A stretch of 64,000 nucleotides of DNA from an uncultured Gammaproteobacteria bacterium (GCA_964415615.1 CAYQAW010000005.1:1902-65901); one strand, 5' to 3'; positions 24,566 through 28,188 are shown, counted from the first letter of the stretch. Program-made: numbers and translations. The notes: a model not told the origin generated them from the letters alone.

Positions 24566-25582
24566 ATGGGAAATAAAAATTACACAATTGTAACTTTAGG
24601 TTCTCACTCCGCCCTGCAAATTTTAAAAGGGGCAAAAGATGAGGGTTTTAAAACTGCAGTAGTAGCAACCCCCAGTAGAATTCCTCTTTATAAGTCTTAT
24701 GATAATTTCATTGATGAAATTTTAGAAGTTGACTCCTGGAAAGATTTTCCTAGTTTAGAAAAACAATTAAATAAGAAAGACTCAATTTTAATTCCACATG
24801 GATCATTTGTGGCATATTTAGGCATGGATGAAAATAAGAATATGAAGGTTCCTTATTTTGGTAATAAAAAAGTTTTAGATTGGGAAGAAAACAGAAAAAT
24901 GCAAAGAACTTGGATGGAAGAGGCAGGAATTAAAGTGCCTCACCTATTTAAAAGAGGAGATAAGATTGACCGCCCTGTAATAGTTAAATCATACGGAGCT
25001 GCAGGAGGTAAAGGTTATTTTACTGCTAGAAATCAAAGAGAATTTGATGCCAAATTAAAAAGTTATAACGAAGAAAGGTTTATGGTACAGGAATATGTTG
25101 TTGGAGTTCCTGTGTATTTTCATTTCTTTTATTCACCTTTAACCAAAAAGGTTGAGATGATGAGTGTGGATAAAAGGTATGAAACCAATGTTGATTCTTT
25201 AGGCAGAATTCCTGCAAAAAATCAAAGAGGATTAAATATTGAGCCTTCTTTTGAGGTGGTTGCTAATATCCCGATGGCAGTCAGAGAATCAATGTTGGCT
25301 GAGGCAGTTTCGATGGCAGAAAGAGTTATTAAAACTTCTCAAAAAATTATTTCTCCCAAAGGTCTTTTTGGACCATTTTGTCTGGAAACTATTATTACTT
25401 CGTCTGAGGAAATTTATGTGATTGAAATTTCAGCCAGAATTGTGGCAGGAACAAACTGCTTTATAAATGGTTCTCCTTATACATATCTACTTTATGATGA
25501 ACCAATGAGCACAGGAAGAAGAATTGCCAGAGAAATTAAAAATGCTATTAAAAAGGATAGATTGAAGGAGGTATTGGACTAA
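24566..25582 (+). CDS. purP: Archaeal-type formate-dependent FAICAR synthetase, PurP-like, copy 1
   Basis: N-terminal [18 protein letters not shown]; ATP-grasp, ~340 aa. Resembles DUF1297/PurP of methanogens. Confidence 0.6.
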
Positions 25583-26674
25583 ATGAATAAACCACAAATA
25601 ACAATAGTAGTATTGGGTAGCCATTCCGCACTGGATGTATGCCGTGGCGCTAAAGATGAAGGTTTTAATACTTTAGTTATTGTTCAAAAGGGTAGAGATA
25701 AAACATATGCAAAGTACTTTAAAACTCAAGGTGAGGTTGGTTGTGTTGATGAGGTTATAGAACTGGAAAAATTTGTTGATATTTTAAAGCCAGAAGTTCA
25801 AGAACAATTATTAAAAAGAAATGCTATATTTGTTCCTCATAGATCTTTTGAAGTTTATATTAACGATTACAATGCAATTGAAAAAAAGTTTAAAGTACAA
25901 ATGTTTGGCAACAGATTTTTACTTAAGTCAGAAGAAAGAGGAGTAAAACCCAATCAATATGATTTATTGGATGAGGCAAAGATCCGTTATCCTAAACAAT
26001 TCAAGGATCCAAAAGAAATAGATAGGCTTTGTATAGTAAAAGTATTGGAAAAGATGAGAGGGTTTGAGAGAGCGTTTTTCTTTGCATCCTCTTTTGAAGA
26101 GTATCAAGCAGGAATAACCCATGGACTGGGTTTAGGGAAGTTTACAGAAGAACAAGTAAAAAATGCAGTGATAGAAGAGTTTATAGTGGGAGTTCAGGTT
26201 AATTTTAATTTCTTTTATTCACCAATTAACAAAAGAGTTGAATTAATAGGTACTGATACTAGAAGACAAACAAATATAGAGGGTTTAACTAAATTACCTT
26301 CCATTTACGAGCAGGAGTTAATGAAGAAAATAGAAGTAAAGTATGAAGAAGCAGGACATATTGCAGTAACAGTTTTAGAATCGTTGCTTGAAGATGCTTA
26401 TGCTTTGGGAGAAAGATTTGTTGAGGCTTCACAAAAATTATATATACCTGGTGTAATAGGCCCATTTGGTTTGCAAACTATGATAACAGCAGGTCCTCCT
26501 AAAAAAGAAATAATTGTTTTTGATGTGTCTCCCAGAATGCCAGGATCCCCTGGAATATTTGCTACTCCTTATAGCGGGTATTTGTATGGTAAAAATATTA
26601 GTATGGGAAAAAGGGTAGCAATGGAAATAAGATATGCTTTAGAAAAAGGAGAAATAGAAAAAGTACTAACATGA
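25583..26674 (+). CDS. PurP-like ATP-grasp protein, copy 2 (tandem paralogue)
   Basis: LGSHSALDVCRGAKDEGF. Collinear similarity to the upstream ORF (for example FFYSP, GPF.L.T.I). Confidence 0.6.
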   Translation: MNKPQITIVVLGSHSALDVCRGAKDEGFNTLVIVQKGRDKTYAKYFKTQGEVGCVDEVIELEKFVDILKPEVQEQLLKRNAIFVPHRSFEVYINDYNAIEKKFKVQMFGNRFLLKSEERGVKPNQYDLLDEAKIRYPKQFKDPKEIDRLCIVKVLEKMRGFERAFFFASSFEEYQAGITHGLGLGKFTEEQVKNAVIEEFIVGVQVNFNFFYSPINKRVELIGTDTRRQTNIEGLTKLPSIYEQELMKKIEVKYEEAGHIAVTVLESLLEDAYALGERFVEASQKLYIPGVIGPFGLQTMITAGPPKKEIIVFDVSPRMPGSPGIFATPYSGYLYGKNISMGKRVAMEIRYALEKGEIEKVLT

Positions 26675-28188
26675 GTGGCAAAAAATATGCATTAGTTAGT
26701 GTTTATGACAAAACCGGAATTGTTGATTTTGCTAGAGTTTTGACAAAATTAGGGTATGAAATTATTTCTACAGGTGGGACATTAGAAGTTTTAACAAAAG
26801 ACGGGATAAAAGTTACACCAATTGAAGAGATAACAGGAAATCCCAGAGATTCTTTTGATGGCAGGATGAAAACGATCAGTTTTCAGATAGAATCAGGTCT
26901 TTTATATGATAGAAAAAATCACCAACATGTTGAGCAAGCTGAAAAATTAAATATTCCTCAAATAGATATAGTAGTTTGTAATTTTTATCCGTTTGAGCAA
27001 AAACCTGGTATTGAAACAATAGATGTAGGCGGGCCTACTATGATTAGGGCAGCTGCTAAAAATTATGAAAACGTACTAGTAATAGTTGACCCTAGTGATT
27101 ACAAAGAAGACTTAAACGTCTTGAATGAACAAAGTCAGCAATTAGCAGCTAAAGCTTTTTACCATCTTTCATTTTATGATAGCCAGATAGGTAAGTTTTT
27201 CTCCAAAGAGAAATTTCCCAAAGAAGTAACTGTGCCACTGCGAAAAACTAATATCTTGAGGTATGGAGAAAATCCTCATCAGGAAGGGGCTTTATATTTA
27301 ATACCCAATACTAATTCACCATTTGCTAAATTAAAACACCTTTGGGGTAGGGAATTATCTGGCACAAATATTGGTGATATTCAAGCGGGTCTGGAAACTG
27401 TCAGACAATTTAGGCAACCTGCTGCTTGTGTAATTAAACATTTAAGCCCTTGTGGGATAGCAACTGGTGCAGATGTTAGAGAGGCTTTATATTATGCTAT
27501 TGAAGCAGACCCTGTTTCCGCTTTTGGAGGAGTGATTGTTTTAAACAAAGTAATGGATTTAGAAGCTGCCAAGAATGTGGCAACGTTTAAAAATGAAAGG
27601 GAAGAAAATATAGATATTGTAGCTGTGCCAGATGTAACTCCTGATGCTTTAGAACTTTTGAAAAAGGTTAGGAAGAGTATGGGAGTTTATACTTTTGGGG
27701 AGATTGAAGATAAAAGAAGTGAAAAGTGGGATCTAAAATATTTTGCAGGAGCAGTGCTTTTGCAGGATTTTGATGATAATGTAGAGGATAGTTTTAAAGA
27801 CTGGAAAGTGGTGACTAAAGAGAAACCCACAGAAAAGCAGCTGCAGCAAATGCAGTTTGGTTTTAAATGCGTAAAAGCTGTGCGTTCTAATGCAGTGATT
27901 GTGATTGATAAAGATATTCCGATGACCCGTGGTATTGGTTCTGGACAAACTTCCAGAGTTGGTGCTACCAAAATTGCTTTAGAGCAAGCTGGGGATCTAG
28001 CAAAAGGTGGAATTTTAATAAGTGATAGCTTTTTCCCATTTGATGACAGTGTAAATTTAGCAGCAAAATATGGAATTGGTGCAATAGTTGAGCAGGGTGG
28101 GTCTATAAATGATAAACTTTCAATAGAGGCAGCTGATCAAGCAGAAATACCAATGGTATTTACAGGAAGGAGAGCATTTAGACACTAA
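26671..28188 (+). CDS. purH: Bifunctional AICAR transformylase / IMP cyclohydrolase
   Basis: MGS-like N-terminus (ALVSVYDKTGIVDFA...ISTGGT) and an AICARFT C-terminal domain; 505 aa. Confidence 0.8.
   Translation: MSGKKYALVSVYDKTGIVDFARVLTKLGYEIISTGGTLEVLTKDGIKVTPIEEITGNPRDSFDGRMKTISFQIESGLLYDRKNHQHVEQAEKLNIPQIDIVVCNFYPFEQKPGIETIDVGGPTMIRAAAKNYENVLVIVDPSDYKEDLNVLNEQSQQLAAKAFYHLSFYDSQIGKFFSKEKFPKEVTVPLRKTNILRYGENPHQEGALYLIPNTNSPFAKLKHLWGRELSGTNIGDIQAGLETVRQFRQPAACVIKHLSPCGIATGADVREALYYAIEADPVSAFGGVIVLNKVMDLEAAKNVATFKNEREENIDIVAVPDVTPDALELLKKVRKSMGVYTFGEIEDKRSEKWDLKYFAGAVLLQDFDDNVEDSFKDWKVVTKEKPTEKQLQQMQFGFKCVKAVRSNAVIVIDKDIPMTRGIGSGQTSRVGATKIALEQAGDLAKGGILISDSFFPFDDSVNLAAKYGIGAIVEQGGSINDKLSIEAADQAEIPMVFTGRRAFRH

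Follow-up and report, generated by a model that had tools for sequence, protein, structure and literature searches.

A pair of group II and group III PurP proteins encoded ahead of purH in a purine operon of a Daviesbacteria bacterium, and the occurrence of such pairs in bacteria

The genes considered here, ORF1 and ORF2 (open reading frames 1 and 2), lie side by side, immediately upstream of purH, in a stretch of 64,000 nucleotides (hereafter the window; GCA_964415615.1, CAYQAW010000005.1:1902-65901) titled as DNA of an uncultured Gammaproteobacteria bacterium. Both encode ATP-grasp proteins of the PurP family, which was described from archaea. Judged by their diagnostic residues, ORF1 is a PurP of group II and ORF2 one of group III, and they are not recent tandem duplicates. 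Pairs of this kind are common in several bacterial lineages, which contradicts the published Archaea-only distribution: a survey of 1,266 bacterial genomes made in 2019 contained no purP, called the gene restricted to Archaea, and dated its origin after the split between Archaea and Bacteria. PurP has thus been treated as an archaeal signature gene; the pair is widespread in Microgenomates, of the candidate phyla radiation (CPR), and in Eremiobacterota, usually in the place of purH. The proteins of the pair are already present in sequence databases, and our literature search found no paper linking purP to the CPR.

A preliminary description of this DNA, made from the sequence alone, had reported two adjacent ATP-grasp frames with the signature LGSHSAL...GAKDEGF, followed by a full-length PurH, and this arrangement was confirmed at 24566-28188. 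The signature, LGSHSAL...(K/R)GAKDEGF, occupies residues 11-28 in both proteins. Over their full length, both have the PurP architecture, an N-terminal DUF1246 (Pfam; ORF1, E 1e-42, 145 bits; ORF2, E 7e-42, 143 bits; cut-off 25) and a C-terminal DUF1297 (ORF1, E 4e-68, 229 bits; ORF2, E 6e-60, 203 bits; cut-off 23.8), and they are 36% identical to each other from end to end (E 7e-69). The same description had named another ATP-grasp family, of the PurK or PurT kind, as the assignment that would overturn its own. The purK model TIGR01161 gives ORF1 21.9 bits against a cut-off of 318 and does not hit ORF2, while a genuine PurK from a sister locus scores 442 bits; all NCBIfam matches above E 1e-30 for the two proteins are to models of formate--phosphoribosylaminoimidazolecarboxamide ligase. 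Among structures in the PDB, ORF1 finds PF1517 (2r84; E 7.5e-105) and MJ0136 (E 6.8e-89), with sequence identities of 49% (E 1e-120) and 42%, respectively. NCBI gives the orthologues of ORF1 the ligase name, and those of ORF2 only that of "DUF1297 domain-containing protein"; proteins of the ORF2 type should indeed not share the enzyme name of the ORF1 type.

Archaeal PurP proteins fall into four classes: I (cluster Ia; MJ0136), II (cluster Ib; PF1517), III (cluster II; PF0421) and IV (TK0431). Groups I and II are recognized by a (K/R)GG(K/R)G loop and Asn258, and group III by a loop with two additional residues and His258 (PMC3261824, PMC6486802). In ORF1 the loop G144-A-A-G-G-K-G150 follows Lys141; Ala stands at the first position of the consensus and GGKG is kept. 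His14, Ser80, Asn234, Ser242 and Arg291 of ORF1 correspond to positions 27, 94, 258, 266 and 314 of MJ0136, and ORF1 retains all the residues for which contacts with ATP, formate or AICAR (5-aminoimidazole-4-carboxamide ribonucleotide) have been reported in the latter. In ORF2 the loop, V154-LEKMRGFERAFF-166, is longer by two residues, its glycines having been lost; aligned to MJ0136 it reads VKVLEKMRGFERAFF against VKFPGARGGRGYF, with a two-residue insertion and basic residues. His259 replaces the Asn258 that contacts the carboxamide, and further fixed switches are found at R87, E198, N207, Q229, E256, Q298, D314 and G321, while His14, Ser88, Ser267, Arg318 and Lys153 remain. With the roles assigned to the residues of MJ0136 (PMC3261824), the contacts to the formyl group (His27, Arg314) and to the 5'-phosphate (Ser94, Ser266) are kept in both proteins.

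These differences hold across the family. An alignment of 225 members was built from the proteins of 80 related loci, representatives at 50% identity, MJ0136 and PF1517. Asn258 and a GAxGGxG loop are present in 104 of 104 sequences of the ORF1 kind (A-type), and His258 with a conserved ...(F/Y)ER(A/G)FF loop in 106 of 106 of the ORF2 kind (B-type), His27, Ser94, Ser266 and Arg314 being kept in both. Family-wide, the B-type has replaced the glycine-rich phosphate loop, Asn258 and two acidic residues, E297 and E310, which we take to be the two metal-binding acids of the ATP-grasp fold, from the SE(V/M)xPR motif of PurT and PurK. Altogether nine sites switch from A to B (G93R, Q199E, Y208N, E230Q, V255E, N258H, E297Q, E310D and A317G). 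They adjoin the known ligand contacts 94, 258 and 314, and are at least 90% conserved within each type among 86 dereplicated sequences; this conservation indicates that ORF2 is under purifying selection. For the AlphaFold2 model of ORF2 (predicted local distance difference test score 81, predicted template modelling score 0.83), the nine highest-ranking PDB matches are all PurP structures (2r7k/l/m, 2r84-86 and 2pbz; template modelling (TM) scores 0.67-0.85, the best 0.78-0.85). With Foldseek, PurP reaches TM 0.8 and E 1e-33, against TM of about 0.5 and E of about 1e-9 for PurT and PurK; the next ATP-grasp families reach E 1e-10. Because the type-specific sites are conserved and the PurP fold is retained, ORF2 is no copy in decay: it is a conserved enzyme or subunit that has been remodelled. 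The two genes were first described as tandem paralogues, and this is right insofar as both belong to the PurP family; they are not simple paralogues, being old types set apart by nine fixed sites and the phosphate loop.

Which organism carries these genes? It is a bacterium, because trigger factor, DnaX and a class-I release factor (RF-1/PCRF) are encoded in the window, together with the cysteinyl- and histidyl-tRNA synthetases (CysRS, HisRS); an archaeal-type family in a bacterial genome, as proposed at the outset, is thus what we see. By protein identity the host is a Daviesbacteria bacterium (Patescibacteria/Microgenomates group): NCBI has proteins of "Candidatus Daviesbacteria bacterium" that match ORF1 at 99-100% identity. 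Record titles among the 80 loci (L001-L080) are unreliable as taxonomy. Many metagenome-assembled genomes of the "binchicken" set (third-party annotation) bear the title "uncultured Gammaproteobacteria bacterium". The proteins of the L001 contig, one of these, are those of Candidatus Daviesbacteria at NCBI, and the other contigs with this title bear purine operons of Daviesbacteria or Microgenomates type. Single labels of "Methylomirabilota", "Planctomycetales" and "Saccharimonadales" are attached to operons of Microgenomates type, and the SMAG labels among them (Methylomirabilota, Saccharimonadales) sit on operons of Levyibacteria or Curtissbacteria type.

The family was searched in one genome per GTDB species, which gave at least 514 confirmed relatives, and the best 80 loci were analyzed. 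They come from Daviesbacteria, Shapiro-, Curtiss-, Levyi-, Woese-, Gottesman- and Roizmanbacteria and other Microgenomates, and about ten from metagenome-assembled genomes of Eremiobacterota/Vulcanimicrobiota produced in several studies, with contigs of up to 1.5 Mb. Archaea are few among these best loci: two short contigs binned as Micrarchaeota, and Methanofastidiosum. The family as a whole is small, with only 569 hits at E < 1e-3 among 1.84 billion cluster representatives.

The two genes behave as a unit. Both are found in 76 of the 80 loci, the exceptions being two contig ends, one fusion of an ORF2-type gene with purB, and Methanofastidiosum; where they are adjacent, the gap is in most loci between -8 and +24 nt. 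Pairwise distances of the A-type and B-type proteins are correlated across loci (r = 0.68), and in archaea groups II and III co-occur in 61 of 61 genomes (PMC6486802). The fusion, an 804-aa frame at L028:8017-10431, joins an ORF2-type sequence (residues 7-341) in-frame with PurB (34-461), and may be genuine or an artefact of assembly or frameshift.

The surroundings of the pair vary with lineage. In core Daviesbacteria the order is purA(-) A B purH purB purE purC, and the synteny of the pair is kept across about 25 species. The Levyibacteria type has A purH B purB; Curtissbacteria purM A purA B purB purE purC guaA; Roizman-, Woese- and Gottesmanbacteria purQ A B purB (purK) purE purC purM; and Eremiobacterota purC-E purL purQ (transporter) A B guaA purD purF. 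Within the 3-15 kb examined per locus, purH was not seen in 44 of the 80. These belong to Curtiss-, Roizman-, Woese- and Gottesmanbacteria and to Eremiobacterota, jointly carry purF, N, D, L, Q, M, B, K, E and C, and have the pair in the slot expected for purH. Ten unassigned frames from six of the loci contained no PurO or MGS-like protein in a Pfam scan; they proved to be purK, a PurS-containing frame, a purC-purE fusion, a symporter and unrelated genes. Does ORF2 evolve differently where PurH is at hand? The ratio of ORF2 to ORF1 rates is 1.56 and 1.38 with purH, and 1.35, 0.93 and 1.92 without it. Relaxed selection on ORF2 beside PurH was rejected, these ratios showing no systematic difference.

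The third protein, PurH, matches MGS and AICARFT_IMPCHas in Pfam and PRK00881 with 521.9 bits (cut-off 402); with TIGR00355 it scores 438.8 bits, under the cut-off of 528. It was aligned with three solved bacterial structures and 31 orthologues. Degeneration of its AICAR formyltransferase (AICARFT) domain, which the preliminary description had proposed to look for, was not seen: KH in IKHxxPCG, SNA, GxGxGQxSR, SDxFFPF, GGSxxD and FRH are all intact, and are kept across 24 Daviesbacteria orthologues. Most motifs of the inosine monophosphate (IMP) cyclohydrolase (IMPCH) domain are intact too. Among SVxDK, STGGT, GRxKTLHPxIHGG, NxYPF and IDIGGPxxxRAAAKN, four are kept, as is the Lys of GRMKT, and at residues 66-77 KTLHPxIHGG is replaced by KTISFQIESG. 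In the form KTISFQ(I/V)xSG, this replacement is found in every CPR PurH compared (Daviesbacteria and Levyibacteria types; L001-L065), while the canonical motif stands in the PurH of the archaeal locus L074 and in the three bacterial structures. It is a lineage-specific variant, and because it is conserved it is probably functional.

How might the two PurP proteins act? The interpretation that we favour, and hold with roughly even confidence, is that ORF1 and ORF2 form a two-component, folate-independent module that converts AICAR to FAICAR (5-formamidoimidazole-4-carboxamide ribonucleotide), and possibly further to IMP, alongside PurH. ORF1 would activate formate with ATP, as formyl phosphate, and formylate AICAR. 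ORF2 would be its obligate partner, either as the other part of a hetero-oligomer without which there is no activity, or as an enzyme that handles FAICAR. In Daviesbacteria the pair would run parallel to PurH, which would contribute IMP cyclohydrolase and the route from 10-formyltetrahydrofolate, fed by glyA and folD, a route on which the purN-purD fusion also draws. Free formate and folate-bound formyl units could then both serve the cell in making IMP. Some published observations bear on this scheme. Extracts of Sulfolobus solfataricus, which encodes only the II/III pair, incorporate formate when ZMP (that is, AICAR) is converted to IMP (PMC3261824); a hetero-oligomer of II and III has been speculated upon (PMC6486802); and PF1517 was crystallized with ATP and with AMP plus AICAR, according to the PDB titles.

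Several points weigh against this interpretation. Purified PF1517 (II) and PF0421 (III) were inactive as FAICAR synthetases, in work that does not state whether the two were mixed, and formate-dependent activity has been shown only for group I, with MJ0136 (PMC3261824, PMC6486802). An intact PurH is encoded in the same operon, so that the module is not strictly needed here, and no source of formate was identified within the window. Neither protein reaches the NCBIfam equivalog cut-offs (ORF1, 399.9 bits against 580; ORF2, 293.9 against 556); since an archaeal pair (L081) also stays below them, these models appear to be narrow. The model of ORF2 is of low confidence at exactly the switched loops (158-162, 253-263 and 322-327), and the computational tools used lend the hetero-oligomer no direct support. 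That the organism encodes both a folate-independent and a folate-dependent route is therefore something we infer, because activity is known only for group I and the group II and III proteins of Pyrococcus furiosus were inactive. The alternative offered with it, that one of the paralogues has a different substrate, fits the residue data of ORF2.

More tentatively, and with the odds leaning against it, ORF2 and group III in general may not be formate ligases at all, and may complete the path from AICAR to IMP without PurH, PurO or PurJ, as an ATP-independent FAICAR cyclase or as an indispensable subunit of a hetero-oligomer. The question of group III has been open in archaea since 2008-2011. The bacterial operons provide an independent genomic context for it, and proteins from mesophiles should be easier to assay. 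They bear both on the role of group II and III proteins and on the nature of the ring-closing enzyme where PurH, PurO and PurJ are lacking. If group III does complete the path, the mesophilic operons of Curtiss-, Roizman-, Woese- and Gottesmanbacteria and of Eremiobacterota would be an independent and easily expressed test set.

The most serious rival, though a rather doubtful one, takes ORF2 itself to be an IMP cyclohydrolase that works without ATP, and to be what has been called the "unidentified crenarchaeal IMP cyclohydrolase": ORF1 would make FAICAR and ORF2 would close the ring, overlapping in Daviesbacteria with the IMPCH domain of PurH. Several residues of ORF2 speak for it: contacts to the formyl group and to the ribose phosphate are retained, the glycines of the ATP phosphate loop are lost, E297 and E310 are changed (to Q and D), and a His takes the place of Asn258, whose partner, the carboxamide, is the nucleophile in ring closure (residue roles from PMC3261824). 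Against it, ATP-grasp Lys153 and the hinge Glu are kept, of which a cyclohydrolase would have no need. As for phyletic patterns, PurO accompanies PurP I in 24 of 25 genomes, and 37 of the 61 genomes with II and III have no known cyclohydrolase (PMC6486802, Table 1), the crenarchaeal enzyme being still listed as unidentified in 2019 (PMC6797443); the 44 bacterial loci that hold the pair and no purH, and the changed IMPCH motif of CPR PurH, point the same way. However, Brown et al., who raised the idea, called the pattern imperfect (PMC3261824). PurO, PurJ or PurH is also present in 24 of the 61 pair-bearing archaea, as it is here in Daviesbacteria and Levyibacteria, and ORF2 is not relaxed beside PurH. 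In addition, the single ORF2-type-purB fusion, which may be an assembly artefact, points to AICAR as ligand and not to FAICAR.

Could the pair act outside the path from AICAR to IMP altogether? The two proteins would then join another acid to another aminoimidazole or ribotide, or deal with products of salvage or damage, and the link to purine genes would be only regulatory. This is improbable. The failure to find activity with AICAR plus formate for group II or III proteins (PMC3261824), the persistence of the pair beside complete PurH or PurV plus PurO sets (PMC6486802; Daviesbacteria here) and the scores below the equivalog cut-offs are all what it would lead one to expect. It does not agree with the structure of PF1517 with AICAR and ATP bound, with the conservation in ORF1 of all residues that contact AICAR and the formyl group, with the position of the pair in the purH slot of loci that show no purH, or with the labelling of IMP by formate in Sulfolobus extracts (PMC3261824).

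Still less probable is that ORF1 and ORF2 are redundant isozymes, each a formate-dependent FAICAR synthetase active on its own and bypassing the AICARFT domain of PurH. Both are full-length members of the family with His27 and Arg314 conserved, and NCBI and JGI sometimes give them the same enzyme name, although current NCBI annotation leaves the ORF2 orthologues without one. Against this, ORF2 is without the (K/R)GG(K/R)G loop and is set apart by nine fixed sites beside the ligand contacts, PF0421 was inactive (PMC3261824), and redundant isozymes would not have stayed together as these two have, in 76 of the 80 loci here and, among archaea, in 61 of 61.

Finally, the idea that ORF2 is an analogue of PurK, the N5-carboxyaminoimidazole ribonucleotide (N5-CAIR) synthetase, and makes good the lack of purK in this operon is very improbable and was rejected. 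In its favour, tblastn found no purK in the 64-kb window, PurE is of class I, PurK too is an ATP-grasp enzyme acting on an aminoimidazole ribotide, and the carboxamide contact is changed in ORF2. But 17 sister loci have a canonical purK (442 bits with TIGR01161; e.g., L057:10821-11948) in addition to the ORF2-type gene, PurK accompanies a cluster II PurP in most Crenarchaeota (PMC3261824), and ORF2 is without the ATP phosphate loop that PurK chemistry needs. Where the order was mapped, purK lies between purB and purE; from the operon of core Daviesbacteria it seems to have disappeared.

The wide distribution of the pair in bacteria argues for an old exchange between domains. Neighbour-joining trees with 100 bootstraps, poorly supported at deep nodes, place ORF1 in an A-type clade with bootstrap 100, while the nodes that split groups I and II are weak (9-57). 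The B-type proteins of Microgenomates form a clade of their own (83), and those of Eremiobacterota one clade for A and one for B (100 each), which adjoin "Micrarchaeota" sequences with bootstraps of 61-66 and 48, respectively. A position outside the bacterial A group is weakly supported (about 56) for PF1517 and Methanofastidiosum. Outside the CPR, the sequences scoring closest to ORF2 are about 50% identical to it; one (P0122, 48%) has clearly archaeal surroundings, which include PolB, Pus10 and a split guaA, and the gene order there is B-A-guaA. Taken together, the sequences fit a transfer between domains that is old and carried both genes jointly, on one occasion or perhaps several. Transfer between domains had been suggested from the window itself, and an old exchange agrees with it, though not a local or recent one: the pair is syntenic across Microgenomates and also present in Eremiobacterota, and recent horizontal transfer into this genome was rejected on a GC content that is uniform across the region (0.33-0.36) and on the synteny conserved among the Daviesbacteria species. 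The two Micrarchaeota-binned contigs (L043, L063) have GC contents of 58-59%, like the Eremiobacterota loci L058 and L061 (60-62%), and both trees place their A and B proteins beside those of Eremiobacterota; this may be a real link between the domains or the result of mis-binning.

The closest parallel is with the II/III pairs of archaea, such as PF1517 and PF0421, or the adjacent genes of Sulfolobales, Pyrobaculum and Korarchaeum. These share with ORF1 and ORF2 the two types and their diagnostic features, are often adjacent and embedded among purine genes, and co-occur strictly. Here, in contrast, the host is bacterial, the group III proteins of Microgenomates form their own clade, and the operon is of bacterial style, with a fused guaA, a purN-purD fusion and PurH immediately downstream. 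The combination of PurH with a II/III pair is not new in itself, being known from 10 archaea (PMC6486802, Table 1). In this Methanosarcinales-type arrangement a complete-looking, full-length PurH coexists with the pair as it does here; unlike in those archaea, the three genes are contiguous and translationally coupled, and PurH has the altered IMPCH motif. The group I system of MJ0136, of the same family and fold and with all its listed active-site residues kept in ORF1, consists of a single gene together with PurO, whereas here there are two paralogues (ORF1 42% and ORF2 39% identical to MJ0136) and no PurO. PurT and PurK share the ATP-grasp fold and an acyl-phosphate chemistry on a purine intermediate, and are a separate family; as a formate-dependent counterpart, PurT stands to PurN as PurP does to the AICARFT domain of PurH.

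Table 1. Purine genes and the promoter-like site in the window (positions counted from its first nucleotide)
Feature	Position	Strand	Remarks
ORF1, PurP group II (cluster Ib)	24566-25582	+	338 aa; ORF list and Pfam
ORF2, PurP group III (cluster II)	25583-26674	+	363 aa; ORF list and Pfam
purH, bifunctional IMP cyclohydrolase (MGS-like) and AICAR formyltransferase	26671-28188	+	505 aa; Pfam, NCBIfam
purB, adenylosuccinate lyase, N-succinyl-AICAR (SAICAR) to AICAR	28188-29573	+	start overlaps purH stop by 1 nt
purE, class I (N5-CAIR mutase)	29570-30019	+	TIGR01162 196 bits, cut-off 150
purC, SAICAR synthetase	29991-30983	+	
purA, adenylosuccinate synthetase	23228-24505	-	divergent from ORF1
promoter-like site TTGACT-17-TATAAT, 11/12	24532-24560	+	in 60-bp divergent spacer purA(-)/ORF1
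purF	14223-15620	+	
purN-purD fusion	15610-17505	+	
purL with PurS-like N-terminus	17531-20356	+	
purQ	20323-21105	+	
guaA	21102-22634	+	
glyA	5662-6951	+	
folD	6917-7786	+	
prs	32840-33823	+	
purM	33820-34956	-	

The window carries almost the entire purine pathway, from glyA and folD through purF to purM (Table 1), and is in effect a purine regulon. Its centre is a tightly packed and translationally coupled operon, purP(II)-purP(III)-purH-purB-purE-purC. The stop codon of ORF1 abuts the ATG of ORF2 (taaATG), which is preceded by a strong Shine-Dalgarno sequence, AGGAGG; that of ORF2 overlaps the start of purH (ATGA), and overlaps recur at the purH/purB, purB/purE and purE/purC junctions. The promoter-like site, the best sigma-70-like match in a region where the total of such matches equals the expectation from shuffled sequence, ends 5 nt upstream of the ATG of ORF1. 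Because it lies so close, and no Shine-Dalgarno sequence was found upstream of this start, a leaderless transcript is possible for the operon. The presence of glyA and folD, noted in the preliminary description, was borne out about 17 kb upstream of the pair; their products would supply folate one-carbon units to PurN and to the AICARFT domain of PurH.

Other features of these loci are worth recording. The purN-purD fusion encodes 631 aa, with Formyl_trans_N followed by GARS_N/A/C, and the same fusion occurs in the Curtissbacteria loci L041 and L046. PurL (941 aa) looks like a fusion of PurS and PurL, its first ~65 residues matching PurS with 24.3 bits (cut-off 22.2), and some related loci have PurL frames of 1400-1680 aa. 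In Eremiobacterota, purC and purE are fused (424 aa; L061:225-1499, also L058, L047, L060, L062, L066, L069 and L072), and in L061 a gene of the sodium:solute symporter family (505 aa; L061:4906-6423) stands between purQ and the PurP pair, with a frame of the same size at the same position in L058. Back in the window, purC is directly followed by two small frames without a Pfam match (104 and 120 aa; 30976-31656), and beyond these lie a PaaX/PadR-like regulator (31729-32232) and a GNAT acetyltransferase on the minus strand (32296-32817).

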